Of a stretch of DNA of 64,000 bases, positions 7,195 to 13,793 are shown piece by piece. This DNA is from Chthoniobacterales bacterium. Its GTDB lineage: Bacteria; Verrucomicrobiota; Verrucomicrobiia; Chthoniobacterales; DASVRZ01. The notes under the pieces were generated by a model that was given only the letters and a program-made list of their open reading frames with translations, ran no database searches and had not been told where the DNA came from. Numbering within the stretch: the stretch's first letter is position 1; each line of letters starts with the position of its first letter. The DNA lies in NCBI GenBank assembly GCA_036524675.1, contig DATDBU010000108.1, positions 4,297 through 68,296 on the forward strand. Direction: 5' to 3'. The translations under genes were made by a program, and so were the position numbers.

Positions 7195-7692
7195 ATGAGC
7201 ATCCCCCCGCCTGACTACTCCTCTTTTCACATCGAGGACTGCGAAGACGTTATCGGCCTGGTAAAAACCCTCGTCGATGGCCGCCATCCCGGAATTCTTG
7301 GCACCGTGGATAAGGATGGAAAACCCCATCTGCGCTGGATGGCGACGTTTTCCTTTTCCGAATTCCCTGTTTTTCACGCACTGACGCATCCCCAGAGCGA
7401 AAAGGTGGCGCAGATTTGGGAAAATCCCAACGTCGATTGGATGTTTTCCAACGAAGACCTGAGTCTCGTTGTTAATCTCTCCGGCAAAGCCCGCGTGCTC
7501 ACCGACACTCCATCGCTAAAACGGATCTGGGCCAAGATCGACGACAAGTCACACGCTTATTTTCTCAACCAATACGCAAAAGGTGCAGGTTTCGTGGCGA
7601 TCGAGACGGTCGTGAAAGCCGTCCGGTGCACCTCGCCCCGTGACGACCTGCGTTTCGACCTGGAAACGGCCGAGCTCGCGCGCGCACGCTGA
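7195..7692 (+). CDS. Pyridoxamine 5'-phosphate oxidase-like / general stress protein 26-like FMN-binding protein
   Basis: 165 aa. 'GILGTVDKDGKPHLRWM' and the overall pattern resemble the split-barrel PNPOx family; weak recognition only. Confidence 0.5.
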   Translation: MSIPPPDYSSFHIEDCEDVIGLVKTLVDGRHPGILGTVDKDGKPHLRWMATFSFSEFPVFHALTHPQSEKVAQIWENPNVDWMFSNEDLSLVVNLSGKARVLTDTPSLKRIWAKIDDKSHAYFLNQYAKGAGFVAIETVVKAVRCTSPRDDLRFDLETAELARAR

Positions 7693-7967
7693 GGAAAGAC
7701 GCTACCGGGTCGATGACCCCGGCTACAGAGAGAGGGCGCTGTAATCGGCCTCCCGTGAGGCAGGCCTCCGCACTTTCCGGTCTGAGTTTCGAACACGGCT
7801 TAGGGAAATTCCCTAGTCGCCTGCACTTGATTCCTAGTTGCGTTGGTCCATTCCTCCGATTGTGGCAGCGCGGCGAGAAGCCTAGTTTGAATGCAGGAAA
7901 ACGCCAGTTGCCGCCCTGAGTCGAATCCCGTTTTCTCTCCCTATTTCCACCTCGGCAACTAGGGAGT

Positions 7968-8873
7968 TTGTCCCGGACGAAGACTATGAGCAACTCCAAT
8001 ACCCAGTTCATCGCGATGCTGTCGGAATCGCAGATTTACAAGGACTACGAACGCGCCTTCAGCGAGACCACCGGCTTGCCGCTCAACCTTCGACCCATTG
8101 AACATTGGAAGCTGGCGCATCGAGGCAGAAAACATGAGAGCCCCTTCTGCGCGCTTATGGCCCGTTCCAACAAGAGCTGCGCAGCCTGCCTGAGGATCCA
8201 GCAAGAAATTTCCAATCCCACCTCGCATGAAACACAGTCGGCAATATGTTTTGCGGGCCTTTGCGAGACCAGCGTGCCTTTGCGGGTCGGCGAAAATCTT
8301 GTCGGCTTTCTCCAGGTCGGAGAAGTTAGGTTTCGTGCTCCGGACAAGGGCGGTTTTGGCAAAATCGCCGAACAACTGCGCGAATGGGGATCCAGCGTTG
8401 ATCTTACGGAGGCCGAAGGCGCATGGCGCCGCACGCGGACGATTTCAAAGGGCCAGTATGATCAGATCGTCCGTCTCCTGGAAATTTTTGCACAACATCT
8501 CGCGCTTGTGGCCAATCAGCTCTTGATACGCCAGGAAAGGGCGGAACCCCCTGCGATCACCCGGGCCCGGCAGTTTATCGAGGCGCATTATGCTGAGGAA
8601 CTTCCGCTGCAGAAGGTTGCCAGGGCAGTTAACATGAGCAGCTTCTATTTTTGCAAGGTGTTCCGCAAAGTAACGGGTCTTACCTTTACGGACTACCTTT
8701 CACGAGTGCGTGTGGAAAAAGCAAAAAAACTGCTGTTGAATCCGAATGCGCGTGTTAGCGAAATTGCTTTTGATTCCGGTTTTGCCTCAATCACAAACTT
8801 CAACCGGACATTCAAACATTTCGTCGGTCATTCTCCCACCGACTATCGCGAGACGTTGCCAAGTGCAGCCTGA
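7968..8873 (+). CDS. AraC-family transcriptional regulator with PocR-like N-terminal sensor domain
   Basis: C-terminal AraC HTH ('MSSFYFCKVFRKVTGLTFTDYL...IAFDSGFASITNFNRTFK'). The N-terminus has the Cys-containing PocR-like stretch 'FCALMARSNKSCAACL'. Confidence 0.8.
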   Translation: MSRTKTMSNSNTQFIAMLSESQIYKDYERAFSETTGLPLNLRPIEHWKLAHRGRKHESPFCALMARSNKSCAACLRIQQEISNPTSHETQSAICFAGLCETSVPLRVGENLVGFLQVGEVRFRAPDKGGFGKIAEQLREWGSSVDLTEAEGAWRRTRTISKGQYDQIVRLLEIFAQHLALVANQLLIRQERAEPPAITRARQFIEAHYAEELPLQKVARAVNMSSFYFCKVFRKVTGLTFTDYLSRVRVEKAKKLLLNPNARVSEIAFDSGFASITNFNRTFKHFVGHSPTDYRETLPSAA

Positions 8874-8951
8874 TGAACGTTTTGCGCCGTTCCTTAATTA
8901 GGCCGAGCCAATTTTTGGGAATGTATAGCCAAAATCCGGAGAGTATCTCCT

Positions 8952-9539
8952 GTGATGAAATGGGACACTCGTGGCAATACGATGAAAACAACCACCGAAG
9001 TCGCTCAAACCAACGCGCCCCTAACTTCAACCAACGTTTTGCCAACGGCCGGTGAAGATCGGTCTCCAAAAGGCCGGCGGCGCAAATCCGCTGCGTTGAA
9101 AGTAACGAATATCCTGGTGCCCATCGATTTTTCCACGACGTCACACCAGGCGCTGGAGTACGCGGTGCCAATCGCCAGCCAGTTCGAAGCAAAGATTACA
9201 TTGGTTCACGCCGTCGAAACCTTCTCCCTTGCCCCGGGCCTGACGTATGTACCTGTGGATGGAAGGCTTTTGACAGCACCCATCGAGCGCAATCTGCAAA
9301 GGCTGGCCAGGAGGACCATCGAGCCGGAGCTTTTGAGAGACTTGCTGGTCCGCGCCGGCACACCTTTCGAAGTCATCACAAACGTGGCCCGAGAATTGGA
9401 AATCGATCTTATTGTTATGACGACTCACGGATATACCGGCGTTCAGCATCTTTTCCAAGGCAGCGTCACCGAACGTGTTGTGCGCGAGGCACCGTGTCCG
9501 GTGTTGGTCGTCCATCCGACCGAGCCCGAATTTGTGTAA
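8952..9539 (+). CDS. Universal stress protein (UspA family)
   Basis: 'ILVPIDFS', 'LIVMTTHGYTG..LFQGSVTERVVREAPCPVLVV'. The true start may be the ATG at 8982. Confidence 0.8.
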   Translation: MMKWDTRGNTMKTTTEVAQTNAPLTSTNVLPTAGEDRSPKGRRRKSAALKVTNILVPIDFSTTSHQALEYAVPIASQFEAKITLVHAVETFSLAPGLTYVPVDGRLLTAPIERNLQRLARRTIEPELLRDLLVRAGTPFEVITNVARELEIDLIVMTTHGYTGVQHLFQGSVTERVVREAPCPVLVVHPTEPEFV

Positions 9540-9636: not shown

Positions 9637-9680
9637 CCTCCTTGTAAAAAACGCCACGGCTGACGATTTGCGAAAGTAAA

Positions 9681-10526
9681 CTAATGTGGTTTTAGCGCGG
9701 TGTGACGCGAGATTTTGCGCAGCCAGGAGCGGCCACGGCGGGCATTGGACATGGTCGTCTCGGGACTTTCGGTGCCGGCCATTTCCACAATGAGCGGGCC
9801 GTGAAATCCGCCGAGGGAAAGATCGTGCAGCAACTGCTCCCAATTGATTCGACCATCGCCGGGTGGCAGATGATCGTCACCGGTCCCGTTATTGTCGTGA
9901 GCGTGGATCATCCTCAAGTGCCCGGCCAGTTTGCGAACGAGGTTGAAAAGGTCGCCCGAGAGATGCGCATGACCCGTATCAAGGCAGGCGCCAGCATCCA
10001 TGTCTTCGAGTGCGTCGAGGATCCATAGAATGTCGCTCGTATTTCCGAAAAGGAGATGGGGCAGCTTGTTCTCCAATGCACAGCCAATTCCGAGTTCCGT
10101 GCAGCGGCGGGCGACTTGGTTCAAGACGCCAACGGTGTTTTCCATGCGTTGAAGCCGTTCCTCTGGTGGAGGTATGACCGCGTGCTCCGGCCCGGGATGA
10201 ATGACCAGATACTGCGCATTCAGCGTCGCCGCCGCCTCGACGGCCTGCAAAATTTCCCGAAGCGCGATTTCGCGCCGGTCCGTTTCGATCGCCGAGATGT
10301 CAATGTGATCCGCAAACGGCGCGTGGAATGAAAAAACGGCCATGCCGAGCTCGTGGATCCGCGTCGCAGCAGTCTGAACAGCGTTCAAGTCGTGATAATC
10401 CAGATGCCTGGGGGCGGAGCACACTTCAATGAAGCTGAAGCCGCTCTCGCGGATCGTCAGCAGGCAATCCAGGATGTTATTTTGGTAAAAACAGCCGGTT
10501 GAAAGGCCGATGGGCCAAATATTCAT
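9681..10526 (-). CDS. Xylose isomerase-like TIM-barrel protein (sugar phosphate isomerase/epimerase; AP endonuclease 2 fold family)
   Basis: 'MNIWPIGLSTGCF', 'HAPF', 'VIHPG', 'ALEN', 'CLDTGHAHL', 'HAHDN..GDDHLPPGDGRINW'. Start at ATG 10526; the longer ORF N-terminus overlaps the upstream gene. Confidence 0.75.
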   Translation of the reverse strand: MNIWPIGLSTGCFYQNNILDCLLTIRESGFSFIEVCSAPRHLDYHDLNAVQTAATRIHELGMAVFSFHAPFADHIDISAIETDRREIALREILQAVEAAATLNAQYLVIHPGPEHAVIPPPEERLQRMENTVGVLNQVARRCTELGIGCALENKLPHLLFGNTSDILWILDALEDMDAGACLDTGHAHLSGDLFNLVRKLAGHLRMIHAHDNNGTGDDHLPPGDGRINWEQLLHDLSLGGFHGPLIVEMAGTESPETTMSNARRGRSWLRKISRHTALKPH

Positions 10527-11934
10527 GATGTTTTCGCGCCAGAGCCGAGCGTCGGAACAACGCCAGGTTGCCCGGGCAATCGGCCACAAGGCACGTTCCT
10601 CCTTCCTGCGATGATTGACAGTTGAAATCCACGAGGTCGTCCAACCCTGTGACGAAGAGTCCGGCGAAAACGCGTGTGTAAAAATCCGCCCGTGTTGCCG
10701 GATCCGCGTCGATCCATTGGCTGCCCCAGTCATGATCTTGCTCGAATTTCGATCGGATGAGTCCGGCGATATGGCGCGGATGCCAGCCGAGGGCGAGCAT
10801 TACCCGTGTGATCATCCGCATGCTGGCTGGGTGAAGCAGGAGATCGTTGGGTTGGGCGAGAATCGCACGCGCACAGGATGGCAGGATATCCAGAGGCGTC
10901 CGATCGTAGGTCTCCGGCCAGCGCGTGGCTGGCTCGTGTTCCTGCGAGTAGAACCAGCCGTGAAAATCGGACAGCGCGGACGCTTCGTATTCGTCCACTA
11001 GATTTTCCATGCCTTCGGTGTTGTTGGGAATACGTGTTGAAGCCCGTGTCGCCAACTCCGCTGTCAGTTCCGCGTCGCGCATGACAGCCGCGCCCATGAG
11101 CCAATCCATTTCAAAAAGAGGAATGCAAAAAAGATCCGGAAGATTTTTGACGAGGTCCTCGCCGAGTAGCCAGCGCTGATGTTTCGGCTTGGAGTAATGG
11201 CTGAATGGAACCCTCAACAGGCGCGAATACAGCGGGTCGCCATACTCGGAGATATCGATCGAAATCATTTCCCGCCCTCGATCGCCAGGACCGGTTTCGA
11301 CTGCGGTCAATTCCACAGGAACCTGGCATCGCGGCGCCGCGAGTTCTTTGATCCGGTGAGCGAGGTACTCCATCACTAGCCCCAACCCGGCGAAGGCTGA
11401 TGCGAGCTTGTACGAAACGACTTCGCCGTCGGGCTTGTGCGGCCTGGCACTGATCTCCCACAACGACGCGGTTCCTCGTCCCAGGCCAGCCAGCCGATTG
11501 AACACCGCTGAATTTTGCCGGATGCGCCACGTGAAATGGTGTCCGCGGCCGCTAAGGCTGTGCAGGGGAACGATTTCGAAGGTTAAAAGCAGACGCTCGA
11601 CGATCCTGGCGACAGGATCCTGGAAGCCAAAAGCGCGTTCCGGGTCGAGATAAACCGCGGCGGGCTCATCGAAATTGACATATTCCAGGTCGAGATCGGC
11701 TATCAGCGACTCACGATCCCAGAGTGACCGACAAATATCGGCATCTTCGCGGAACAAGACAGGTAGTTCACGGGGGTGCATGGGAATGCGGCGTTGCGGA
11801 TCGCTCGCATCGCCGGCCGTCAGATGATGGCATCGGGCCGTCGCGATGGAGTGTCCCCCGAGAAACTCGATAAAACGGGCCTGTACCTGCGGGTTATCAT
11901 AATAGTTCGCGCGCATAAACCCCTTTCCCGGCAC
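10477..11934 (-). CDS. Uncharacterised protein with AEP (archaeo-eukaryotic primase / primase-polymerase)-like catalytic motifs
   Basis: Ordered motifs 'LIADLDLEYV' (DxD/DxE), 'LSGRGHHFTW' (sGxGxH) and 'ISIDIS...RLLRVPFSHYSKPK' (hD...RxPxSxxxK). The C-terminal ~230 aa are unrecognised. Confidence 0.5.
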   Translation of the reverse strand: MPGKGFMRANYYDNPQVQARFIEFLGGHSIATARCHHLTAGDASDPQRRIPMHPRELPVLFREDADICRSLWDRESLIADLDLEYVNFDEPAAVYLDPERAFGFQDPVARIVERLLLTFEIVPLHSLSGRGHHFTWRIRQNSAVFNRLAGLGRGTASLWEISARPHKPDGEVVSYKLASAFAGLGLVMEYLAHRIKELAAPRCQVPVELTAVETGPGDRGREMISIDISEYGDPLYSRLLRVPFSHYSKPKHQRWLLGEDLVKNLPDLFCIPLFEMDWLMGAAVMRDAELTAELATRASTRIPNNTEGMENLVDEYEASALSDFHGWFYSQEHEPATRWPETYDRTPLDILPSCARAILAQPNDLLLHPASMRMITRVMLALGWHPRHIAGLIRSKFEQDHDWGSQWIDADPATRADFYTRVFAGLFVTGLDDLVDFNCQSSQEGGTCLVADCPGNLALFRRSALARKHHEYLAHRPFNRLFLPK

Positions 11935-12014
11935 GCGGACCGGAGTCTCCTCGTTTCATTCGAAACGAGCCGCCTGCCAGGTAAGACTCCGGCCGCGAAG
12001 CATGGTGGGGAATA

Positions 12015-13793
12015 CTATAGCCGGGCGATGAGCAATTCCTTCTGAAAATGCAGTTCCAGCGGCAGATCGGCGTGCAAAGTCAGGAACAATTCGTCCTGCT
12101 GCAGGACTTCGCGTTTCCAGCCTTCCACATCAAAGGCGAGAGCGGCGGCCAGCCTTTCGCGCGAATAACCTTCCAGGCCGTCGATGCGAATATCGTCTGC
12201 CGATGGCATCCAGCCGAGAGGCGTTTCCTCGGCATAGACGCGGCCGTGACAGCGGTTCACGATCCATTCCAGCACGCGGAGGTTGTCTCCGAAACCTGGC
12301 CAGAGAAATTCACCCTGAGCGTCTTTCCGGAACCAGTTGACGTGGAAGATCTTCGGCGGCCGGCGCAGTTGCTTGCGCATCCGCAGCCAATGTCCCAGAT
12401 ACGCGCCCATGTTGTAGCCGCAGAACGGCAGCATCGCCATCGGGTCGCGGCGGACCTGGCCGACGCCGCCAGCGGCGGCTGCGGTCATTTCGCTGCCCAT
12501 CGTCGCACCGACATAAACGCCATGGATCCAGTTGAACGACTGAAACACGAGCGGCATCGTCGTCGCGCGGCGCCCGCCAAAAATGATGGCGCTAATCGGC
12601 ACGCCTTGTGGATTTTCCACTTCATCGTCCAGCACGGGATTATTCGTCATGGGGGCGGCGAACCTGCTGTTCGGATGCGCAGCCTTTTCCTTTGAAGCGG
12701 GAGTCCACGGGTTGCCCTTCCAGTCGGTTGCCGAGGCGGGCGGGGGACCATCCTTGCCTTCCCACCAAACGTCGCCGTTCTCGGTGAGTGCCACGTTGGT
12801 AAAAATGGTGTCGCGGGCCATGCACTGCATGGCGTTTGGGTTCGAATGATAGTTCGTGCCTGGCACGACGCCGAAATAGCCGGCCTCCGGATTGATTGCG
12901 TAAAGCCTCCCGTCAGGCCCGGGTTTCATCCAGGCGATATCATCGCCGACCGTCGTGACTTTCCAGCCCCGATATTGTTGAGGCGGGATCATCATGGCGA
13001 AATTGGTCTTGCCACAGGCGCTTGGAAAAGCGGCGGCGACATAGGTTTTTTCTCCATCGGGCGATTCGACACCGAGAATGAGCATGTGCTCGGCCATCCA
13101 GCCTTCCTGACGTCCGAGATAACTGCCGAGACGCAGCGCCAGGCATTTCTTGCCCAGCAAGACATTGCCTCCGTAATTCGAGCCGACGCTGAGGACCGTG
13201 TTGTCCTGTGGAAAATGGGCAATGATCCGGTTTGCCGGATCGAGATCCAGCATCGAATGGATGCCGCGATTGAAGTCTTCGCTGTCATCCCCAAGCTGGT
13301 CATAGGCGACATCTCCCATTCGCGTCATGATGCCCATGCTCAACACGACGTAGATGCTGTCGGTGAGTTCGATGCCGACTTTTGCCAGAGGCGAACCCAG
13401 GGGGCCCATGACGTAGGGCACGACATACATGGTGCGTCCGCGCATGGCGCCGTTGAGCATGTCGTGGAGCCTGGCATACATCTCCTTCGGAGCCGCCCAA
13501 TTGTTGGTTGGGCCAGCGTCGTCTTTGGTGGGCGTGCAGATGAACGTACAGTCCTCCACGCGGGCGACATCGTTCGGATTCGAGCGATGATAATAGGAAC
13601 CGGGCCGGAGTTCGGGGTTGAGCGCCGTCAGGACGCCCTCCTGTTCGGCGCGGAACGTGAGCCATTTCCTTTGTTCCGGCGACCCGTCGCAATAAAATAT
13701 GTCGTCCGGCTGGCAGAGTTCTGCTGTCCTGGAAATCCAATTCAGAACAGTCGGATTCCTGATGTTAGGTACTTCAAGGGGCGTTGCATTCAT
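12015..13793 (-). CDS. pckG: Phosphoenolpyruvate carboxykinase (GTP)
   Basis: Kinase-1a 'FPSACGKTN', 'GDDIAWM', 'NPNAMQ', 'FGGRR'. Length is typical of GTP-PEPCK. Start chosen at 'MNATPLEV'. Confidence 0.9.
   Translation of the reverse strand: MNATPLEVPNIRNPTVLNWISRTAELCQPDDIFYCDGSPEQRKWLTFRAEQEGVLTALNPELRPGSYYHRSNPNDVARVEDCTFICTPTKDDAGPTNNWAAPKEMYARLHDMLNGAMRGRTMYVVPYVMGPLGSPLAKVGIELTDSIYVVLSMGIMTRMGDVAYDQLGDDSEDFNRGIHSMLDLDPANRIIAHFPQDNTVLSVGSNYGGNVLLGKKCLALRLGSYLGRQEGWMAEHMLILGVESPDGEKTYVAAAFPSACGKTNFAMMIPPQQYRGWKVTTVGDDIAWMKPGPDGRLYAINPEAGYFGVVPGTNYHSNPNAMQCMARDTIFTNVALTENGDVWWEGKDGPPPASATDWKGNPWTPASKEKAAHPNSRFAAPMTNNPVLDDEVENPQGVPISAIIFGGRRATTMPLVFQSFNWIHGVYVGATMGSEMTAAAAGGVGQVRRDPMAMLPFCGYNMGAYLGHWLRMRKQLRRPPKIFHVNWFRKDAQGEFLWPGFGDNLRVLEWIVNRCHGRVYAEETPLGWMPSADDIRIDGLEGYSRERLAAALAFDVEGWKREVLQQDELFLTLHADLPLELHFQKELLIARL

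Follow-up and report, generated by a model that had tools for sequence, protein, structure and literature searches.

A predicted chromosomal primase-polymerase of the AEP superfamily and its overlapping Endo IV-like partner gene in a Chthoniobacterales bacterium

In a 64,000-nucleotide (nt) stretch of DNA from a Chthoniobacterales bacterium (contig DATDBU010000108.1; this whole stretch is called the window below), the minus-strand open reading frame (ORF) at positions 10477-11934 encodes a protein that is very probably an enzyme belonging to the superfamily of archaeo-eukaryotic primases (AEPs), and its 3' end overlaps a second gene for a TIM-barrel protein resembling endonuclease IV (Endo IV). 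On balance, we favour the reading that this is a chromosomal, single-chain primase-polymerase similar to PriS-PriL, working with an Endo IV-like end-processing enzyme; that it acts with this partner as a DNA repair or repriming module is a serious possibility, which we put forward more tentatively. The AEP family described here, with its architecture and its partner, is new, and the statements on its function are computational.

The catalytic domain and its place among AEP enzymes

The ORF represents a real and strongly conserved gene. Both the GTG start and the length of 485 amino acids (aa) counted from it, the latter as given in an earlier note on this DNA, are present in the window; however, homologs align from the equivalent of Met7 (M7) of the 485-aa ORF, so the true start is likely the ATG at 11916, giving a product of 479 aa that is identical to the database protein P0001 (P0001 numbering is ORF numbering minus 6). 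A word-indexed search of 5.8 billion proteins returned 1,549 matches among 8,000 scored candidates, the best 120 of which were 55-84% identical over 95-100% of the length, with a protein from a Chthoniobacterales metagenome-assembled genome (MAG) as the nearest relative (84%). The names given by the sources to these homologs were all "hypothetical protein", and a precomputed Pfam domain was attached to none. Exhaustive scanning of 1.84 billion cluster representatives with HMMER gave 563 clusters at E <= 1e-3, and since full-length members were found down to ~30% identity, the N- and C-terminal halves of the protein travel together. The window itself derives from a soil metagenome, and among soil-metagenome DNA runs only four contained the locus (word share 0.99-1.00).

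The AEP (PriS/Prim-Pol-like) catalytic domain occupies residues ~1-262 of the 479 (11131-11916, minus strand), for which the predicted local distance difference test (pLDDT) score of the AlphaFold model was mostly >90. The three stretches in which the earlier note had recognised AEP motifs, LIADLDLEYV, LSGRGHHFTW and ISIDIS...RLLRVPFSHYSKPK, were recovered in the ORF translation where it had placed them and in the right order, and their conservation was counted in an alignment of 60 diverse representatives sharing 28-54% identity with the query. On the minus strand, 1) motif I (hhhhDhE; LIADLDLEYV, 11677-11706) lies on a beta-strand and supplies the metal-binding D82 and E84 of the ORF (encoded at 11683-11691), equal to D76 and E78 of P0001, D76 being kept in 57/60 and position 78 being E in 36/60 and D in 21/60, 2) motif II ([ST]GxGxH; LSGRGHHFTW, 11527-11556) forms the turn of a beta-hairpin, with [TS]122 in 59/60, G123 in 54/60, G125 in 60/60 and H127 in 55/60, and 3) motif III (hD, then R.PFS.Y.K; ISIDISEYGDPLYSRLLRVPFSHYSKPK, 11182-11265) has D221 in 60/60, R232 in 58/60, R235 in 56/60, F238 in 55/60 and K243 in 51/60. 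Judged from this alignment, the conservation of the AEP motif pattern exceeds chance. The N-terminal half has an intact two-metal active site, made up of the conserved acidic residues D82, E84 (E or D in 57/60) and D227 in ORF numbering, and a nucleotide-binding SGxGxH hairpin. Of the mutant set D80/D82/E84 proposed earlier, D82 and E84 are thus conserved, whereas D80 (P0001 D74) varies among the 60 (H in 18, D in 9, V in 9 and so on) and its place as the third conserved acid is taken by D227.

The AlphaFold2 model of the full-length protein, built on a 66-sequence alignment, had a mean pLDDT of 87.9 and a predicted TM (pTM) score of 0.90. Motif I was located on strand 70-81, motif II where strands 118-121 and 125-133 form a hairpin, and motif III where strand 216-221 ends, a placement that fits the layout of AEP enzymes. 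With this predicted model as the query, Foldseek ranks 1-16 in the PDB were all AEP Prim-Pols, belonging to LigD-Pol, Mycobacterium smegmatis Prim-PolC, CAPP and RepB' (prob 0.77-1.00, E from 2.5e-3 to 8.5e-2); the best match was Mycobacterium tuberculosis LigD-Pol (2r9l, E = 2.5e-3, prob 1.00), and the next after rank 16 were pRN1 primase, human primase, the PrimPol of African swine fever virus (ASFV) and human PrimPol. The matches in the viral structure library (BFVD) were led by phage primases, namely DUF927, "Primase C-terminal 2", RepB-like and TOTE primase (best E 4.8e-4). Because the four AEP families agree unanimously and the catalytic residues are conserved, assignment to the AEP superfamily is secure. 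The AEP/PrimPol/LigD-Pol hallmarks reported in the earlier note were therefore borne out by structure prediction and comparison, and of the two outcomes that it had named as speaking against them, an unrelated fold and motif positions not conserved among homologs, neither was observed.

Membership in the superfamily was established at the level of motifs I-III and of the fold, and not by a match to a described sequence family. Searches of Pfam, NCBIfam, PADLOC and the PDB sequences with the AEP-like protein gave no match at E <= 10, none of the described AEP Pfam families matched any of the 60 members at E <= 1, no recurrent Pfam family appeared when these 60 were scanned singly, and the sole match of the family profile to PDB sequences was irrelevant (E = 0.64). 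The only match in PHROGs was to phrog_24145, an unannotated phage family, with a weak E = 0.0095. It was noticed that this match covers window positions 10953-11276 (residues 220-327), a span that takes in motif III and the beginning of the helical domain described below. Since no described AEP profile matches, the AEP-like protein forms a separate family, and the earlier expression "undescribed AEP family" is a fair one, Pfam, NCBIfam, PHROGs and PADLOC being without a relevant match. The lack of a sequence-profile match to any AEP family, together with Foldseek E-values of ~1e-3, would also agree with a chance resemblance of motifs on an unrelated fold or with a catalytically dead pseudo-enzyme; however, the sixteen top structural matches come from four AEP families, and the catalytic residues are nearly invariant in 60 divergent members and sit on the correct secondary-structure elements, so we find this explanation hardly credible.

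Compared with known enzymes, the AEP-like protein is similar to Prim-PolC (of the LigC complex) and LigD-Pol in that these are bacterial, chromosomal AEPs with motifs I-III, and they provided the best structural matches (2r9l, 6sa0 and 5op0). It differs from them in having no detectable sequence-profile similarity, in having neither Ku nor an ATP-dependent ligase near its gene, and in carrying a 210-aa helical domain with four cysteines (Cys4), which those enzymes lack. The Prim-Pol fold is also shared with CAPP, pRN1 ORF904 and RepB', the highest target TM-scores (0.53-0.58) being those of Marinitoga CAPP, and in pRN1 and RepB' the catalytic core likewise requires a helix bundle on its C-terminal side (PMC5862659). 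In contrast to the AEP-like family, CAPP, pRN1 and RepB' are found in CRISPR or plasmid contexts, without an Endo IV-like partner or a Cys4 motif.

The C-terminal helical domain with four conserved cysteines

The remainder of the protein (residues ~265-479; 10480-11130, minus strand) was all-helical in the full-length model, with pLDDT 86-98 over residues 270-400, and contains a highly conserved GWHPRHIAGL stretch and an invariant H319. Four cysteines are conserved in this domain. The first lies in LPSC (family consensus LPPC; 10873-10884, minus strand) and is C354 of the ORF or C348 of P0001, present in 57/60, whereas the other three form a C-x8-C-x4-C triad (CQSSQEGGTCLVADC, 10576-10620, minus strand), with C433 in 56/60, C442 in 56/60 and C447 in 47/60, which we propose to be the remaining metal or cluster ligands. 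The pLDDT at the triad was lower (69-74), which is to be expected where a site is modelled with the ligand missing.

Since the AEPs known so far commonly carry a fused helical domain of the PriCT or PriL-like type (PMC5862659), a relationship with the C-terminal domain (CTD) of PriL was tested. Ten weak Pfam matches were obtained over the 60 members, one of which was to PF04104 (primase large subunit): residues 301-417 of member P0189 were aligned with profile positions 65-171 at E = 0.029 and 14.2 bits, corresponding to a per-comparison P of ~1e-6. Terminase_5, 2H-phosphodiesterase, ZSWIM and the other weak matches were single and unrelated, and were treated as noise. The human p58C sequence, verified against PDB 3Q36 and 4RR2, was mapped onto PF04104, which put its first iron-sulphur (Fe-S) ligand, C287, near profile position 111 and the LPPC cysteine of P0189 (the equivalent of C348) near position 116; both positions are linear estimates from the match coordinates, and the registers agree within a few positions. 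When the family C-terminal profile was compared with p58C by hhalign, the best alignment was at LPPC/FPPC with a score of 21.3, which was reached by 3 of 400 shuffles (mean 12.8 +/- 2.5), and the family-region hidden Markov model (HMM) found the LPPC/FPPC site again in p58C with HMMER (P = 0.005). The intervals between the cysteines are 85, 9 and 5 residues in the AEP-like family as against 80, 17 and 40 in PriL, so that the first two are similar and the last is not, and the short distance between the third and the fourth implies a truncated Fe-S_C subdomain. On these results, a PriL-CTD-like Cys4 domain (of the Fe-S_N type, a putative primase accessory) with a shortened cluster-binding tail probably makes up the C-terminal half, and it may bind an Fe-S cluster. 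The earlier note had found nothing recognisable in the C-terminal ~230 aa, where it had marked CQSSQEGGTCLVADC; this holds for profile matches above threshold, but not for the probable kinship with PriL.

An AEP catalytic domain together with a helical domain bearing four cysteines is also the arrangement of PriS-PriL and of PolpTN2, which has a PriL-like 4Fe-4S domain and an AEP in one chain (PMC5862659). Unlike PriS-PriL, the AEP-like family is bacterial and chromosomal and its PF04104 match is below threshold; unlike PriS-PriL and PolpTN2, it has no detected PriCT-1 or winged-helix domain; and PolpTN2, unlike the AEP-like family, is plasmid-borne in Thermococcales. According to the AEP census, PriL hardly ever occurs other than with the replication primases of chromosomes, and only mobile elements have PriCT domains (PMC5862659). 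No chromosomal bacterial PriS-PriL-like fusion was described in the full-text literature searched or in PMC5862659.

A stand-alone 231-aa copy of the C-terminal Cys domain was found at L086:484-1179, just upstream of the distant member P0219 (31% identity), where a membrane protein stands downstream in place of the TIM partner. This copy suggests that the C-terminal Cys domain can be a separate module, or else it is a duplication remnant.

The overlapping TIM-barrel gene and the chromosomal setting

The end of the AEP gene overlaps out of frame, by 50 nt (10477-10526, minus strand), the start of a gene at 9681-10526 on the same strand, which encodes a 281-aa TIM barrel of PF01261 (Pfam E = 2.2e-35) with a complete Endo IV-type nine-residue metal site. 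This overlapping downstream gene is the conserved context of the AEP-like gene and had been missed by the earlier note. Using two peptide patterns, we confirmed 279 loci among 185,579 species genomes, 80 of which (L006-L085) were analysed, and full gene lists within +/-8 kb were prepared for three homolog loci (L001, L002 and L005). In each of the latter three, a PF01261 gene of ~281-285 aa follows the AEP-like gene with an overlap of 59 nt, and in most other loci the overlap is 58-59 nt (mode 58). By ORF clustering in the GTDB species genomes, the partner was found downstream on the same strand in 76/80 loci; the four without a visible partner comprised three contig ends and one truncated match, so it is present in 76/76 assessable loci, and it still adjoins an AEP-like member of 33% identity (L087). 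In at least one protein, P0133 (747 aa), a complete AEP-like protein and the TIM barrel are fused in frame; another such fusion, P0141, has no Cys tail and could have arisen artificially through a frameshift. The overlap implies co-transcription, and translation of the two genes is probably coupled. A terminator-like hairpin followed by a T-run (TTTTTT) at 9652-9665 (minus strand), recognised by consensus match only and situated 16 nt past the partner stop, likely ends the two-gene unit. It was also noticed that, as both protein ends are conserved, positions 10477-10526 are dual-coding under double constraint, and that the overlap is unusually long for simple translational coupling.

The partner was examined by aligning 77 of its sequences with Escherichia coli Endo IV, whose sequence was verified to be identical to 1QTW and whose nine ligands we take to be H69, H109, E145, D179, H182, H216, D229, H231 and E261. 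Eight of these positions were invariant in 77/77, and the equivalent of H69 (H68 in SFHAPF) was kept in 76/77. Sugar epimerases, with four ligands, lack the ligands of Zn1 and Zn3; because these are also kept here, the partner is predicted to be a three-metal phosphodiesterase and not an isomerase, and a sugar isomerase/epimerase role was rejected. Its nearest solved relatives were MJ1311 (E = 3e-20), TTHB071 (E = 4e-8) and M. tuberculosis Endo IV (E = 4e-5), and its NCBIfam matches, to fructoselysine epimerase, CbiR and nfo, were all below cutoff, the score for the CbiR family being 50 bits against a cutoff of 105. Thus, it resembles the Endo IV (Nfo)/CbiR/MJ1311 branch of PF01261 in its TIM barrel and nine Endo IV metal-ligand positions, but it scores far below the curated cutoffs of both Nfo and CbiR and therefore is a distinct PF01261 subfamily nearer MJ1311 and TTHB071. 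That such TIM-barrel enzymes can also cleave non-DNA phosphodiesters is known from CbiR (PMC7733943). Neither the full-text literature searched nor the AEP census (PMC5862659) describes an AEP with a link to a TIM barrel resembling Endo IV.

On the other side of the pair, the stop codon of pckG (TAG, 12015-12017; Pfam PEPCK_GTP, E = 6e-164) is 80 nt upstream of the GTG, in agreement with the spacing in the earlier note; however, pckG was not adjacent to the pair in the gene-listed loci L001, L002 and L005, and an operon link with it was rejected on that account. The 80-nt spacer contains a perfect 8-bp hairpin, CTCGTTTC-GAAT-GAAACGAG, at 11950-11969 (minus strand), which is without a T-run and whose 3' arm overlaps AGGAG; it could be a processing, attenuation or ribosome-binding-site-occluding element. 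No sigma-70-like promoter was found between 9400 and 14000, a result that is uninformative for the host phylum.

The AEP/TIM pair is chromosomal and non-mobile. Its neighbours in the window are genes for a GHMP kinase (IspE-type), a PNPOx-like protein, a PocR-AraC regulator, Usp, phosphoenolpyruvate carboxykinase (PEPCK), a phosphoribosyltransferase, ThiS, SufS and NifU; no tRNA was found in the window, and its GC content is uniform (0.52-0.59). A tblastn search with the AEP-like protein gave no match in 50,697 phage and 72,556 plasmid records, and neither Ku nor a ligase Pfam domain was found within +/-8 kb in the gene-listed loci, nor any such recurrent cluster among the 80 loci. The view that the gene lies outside a phage, plasmid or non-homologous end joining (ku/ligD) context was thus upheld in the listed loci and in the phage and plasmid collections. 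Mobile elements are the source of most bacterial AEPs that have a PriCT or PriL-like domain (PMC5862659), and the structural matches to phage primases and to the TOTE conflict-system primase, as well as the sporadic phyletic distribution, could indicate a primase that serves the replication of an integrated mobile element, or a component of an anti-phage defence system. This explanation is already largely refuted and we consider it very unlikely, since relatives are missing from the phage and plasmid collections and PADLOC gave no match, no helicase, integrase or tRNA is nearby, the GC content is uniform, and the flanks vary by lineage yet always consist of chromosomal stress or housekeeping genes.

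Beside the pair in the gene-listed homolog loci were genes for Usp, P-type ATPases, phosphoenolpyruvate (PEP) synthase/pyruvate phosphate dikinase (PPDK) and pyruvate kinase, the last of these being near the pair in L005. PNPOx-like and PocR-AraC genes were noticed beside the pair both in the window (7195-9539, a region which also includes a Usp gene) and in the distantly related L002 (10421-16361). Among the 80 loci, the neighbour clusters, named by reading the sequences and from the Pfam labels of the gene-listed loci, were Usp (30/80), P-type cation ATPase (19/80), erythromycin-esterase-like (18/80), Hsp20 (17/80), phosphoribosyltransferase, CBS and Zn-dependent alcohol dehydrogenase (15/80 each) and PEP synthase/PPDK (11/80), counts that are not independent as many of these loci are from related Chthoniobacterales. 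This recurrent set resembles DosR-type dormancy/hypoxia gene sets.

Members of the AEP-like family are distributed in Verrucomicrobiota (most of the 80 loci), Planctomycetota, Fibrobacterota, Acidobacteriota, Desulfobacterota, Methylomirabilota, Omnitrophota and Nitrospirota. All 80 loci (L006-L085) are from MAGs, with no cultured isolate among them, which will hamper genetics. Two members appear to have additional domains: an N-terminal CBS domain was read by eye in P0233, and P0245 combines a fragment of the AEP with a PocR domain and an AraC helix-turn-helix, probably as an assembly chimera of neighbouring genes.

A possible role in DNA maintenance

According to the reading that we favour, the AEP domain would polymerise nucleotides, and the C-terminal domain would bind an Fe-S cluster and support initiation by analogy with the PriL-CTD, which in known primases holds the initiating nucleotide. 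The protein would be made together with its TIM-barrel partner and probably binds it; the TIM-barrel enzyme would cut at, or clean, DNA damaged by abasic sites or blocked 3' ends, after which the AEP enzyme would prime or fill in at the processed DNA, perhaps using ribonucleotides, in the chromosome of cells that grow slowly or are under stress. In the stationary-phase base excision repair of mycobacteria, Prim-PolC closes the gaps that Endo IV has made, and by analogy with these two enzymes it is possible that ribonucleotides are used in non-growing cells (PMC5663958). The work of mycobacterial Prim-PolC with Endo IV parallels the pairing with an Endo IV-like gene here, except that the nuclease-like partner is obligately co-encoded or fused and not recruited.

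The precedent of Prim-PolC and Endo IV, the position of LigD-Pol and Prim-PolC as the best structural matches in the PDB and the sub-threshold evidence for PriL would also suit a repair polymerase of the LigD-Pol/Prim-PolC kind only, which would fill short gaps after the partner without de novo priming and whose Cys4 domain, without kinship to PriL, would be a Zn site of structural function or a module for binding DNA or the partner. We regard this as somewhat unlikely, since Ku and ligase are missing from the neighbourhoods, LigD-type polymerases are without a large C-terminal helical Cys domain, and three independent methods chose the same PPC register with PriL.

A further explanation is that the pair does not act on chromosomal DNA and consists of a synthase and a phosphodiesterase, analogous to GGDEF-EAL, in which the AEP would make a short oligonucleotide or a nucleotide-linked small molecule (a signal or metabolite) and the TIM barrel would hydrolyse or process its phosphodiester. 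Several observations are in line with it: the partner's relative CbiR cleaves a non-DNA phosphodiester, recurrent neighbours were read as Usp, CBS and cyclic-nucleotide (cNMP)-binding types and one member appears with an N-terminal CBS domain, PEP-metabolism genes recur nearby, and the conservation of 55-60% across phyla is typical of metabolic enzymes; in addition, primases make dinucleotides as their first step. However, we know of no AEP with a role as an oligonucleotide-signal or small-molecule synthase, nucleic-acid chemistry is indicated both by the PriL-like domain and by the metal site of Endo IV type, and the overlap and the in-frame fusion suggest one complex and not opposing activities, though GGDEF-EAL fusions exist; this explanation is quite unlikely in our judgement. 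Decidedly unlikely as well is a variant in nucleotide signalling or oligonucleotide metabolism, in which an AEP with an Fe-S domain, possibly sensing redox state or O2, would make a 5'-triphosphorylated oligonucleotide under stress, the TIM barrel would process or degrade the product, and neighbours of the Usp, CBS and cNMP-binding types would read it out.

Returning to the primase-polymerase with an Endo IV-like partner, several observations weigh against it. For the AEP domain, no sequence-profile method ties the protein to any described AEP family, and the Foldseek E-values for the AEP fold are modest (1e-3 to 1e-2). As for the C-terminal domain, the PF04104 match was obtained with 1/60 members and is sub-threshold (14.2 bits against a cutoff of 22.4), which leaves the family outside PF04104; the LPPC/FPPC alignment comprises just 15-18 residues (P about 0.005-0.014); the last two cysteines are spaced differently from those of PriL (5 as against 40); and AlphaFold modelled the isolated domain poorly (17 sequences, pLDDT 54), the Foldseek matches of that model (neuroglobin, death-effector and others, E > 1) being discarded as meaningless. 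The partner is below both nfo cutoffs (NF002198, 36.4 against 244 bits; TIGR00587, 25.1 against 129.65), and its nearest relatives, MJ1311, TTHB071 and CbiR, are either uncharacterised or active on a phosphodiester other than that of DNA. Finally, no ligase, Ku or other repair gene was found among the recurrent neighbours, and none of the RNA-seq runs searched contains the AEP-like gene.

At present, AEPs in bacteria are seen either as mobile-element replicases or as LigD/LigC repair polymerases, and an Fe-S domain of the PriL type is regarded as a hallmark of the replicative primases of archaea and eukaryotes. The AEP-like family would be a third kind of bacterial AEP, being chromosomal, strongly conserved, apparently single-chain and PriS-PriL-like, and hard-wired to an Endo IV-like enzyme. 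If the proposed mechanism is true, it would give a function to two large sets of genes now labelled "hypothetical" and "sugar isomerase-like", would offer a simple bacterial model for the working of the Fe-S primase domain, and would define a new pathway of bacterial DNA maintenance in soil bacteria that are abundant and for the most part uncultured, such as Udaeobacter and Chthoniobacterales.

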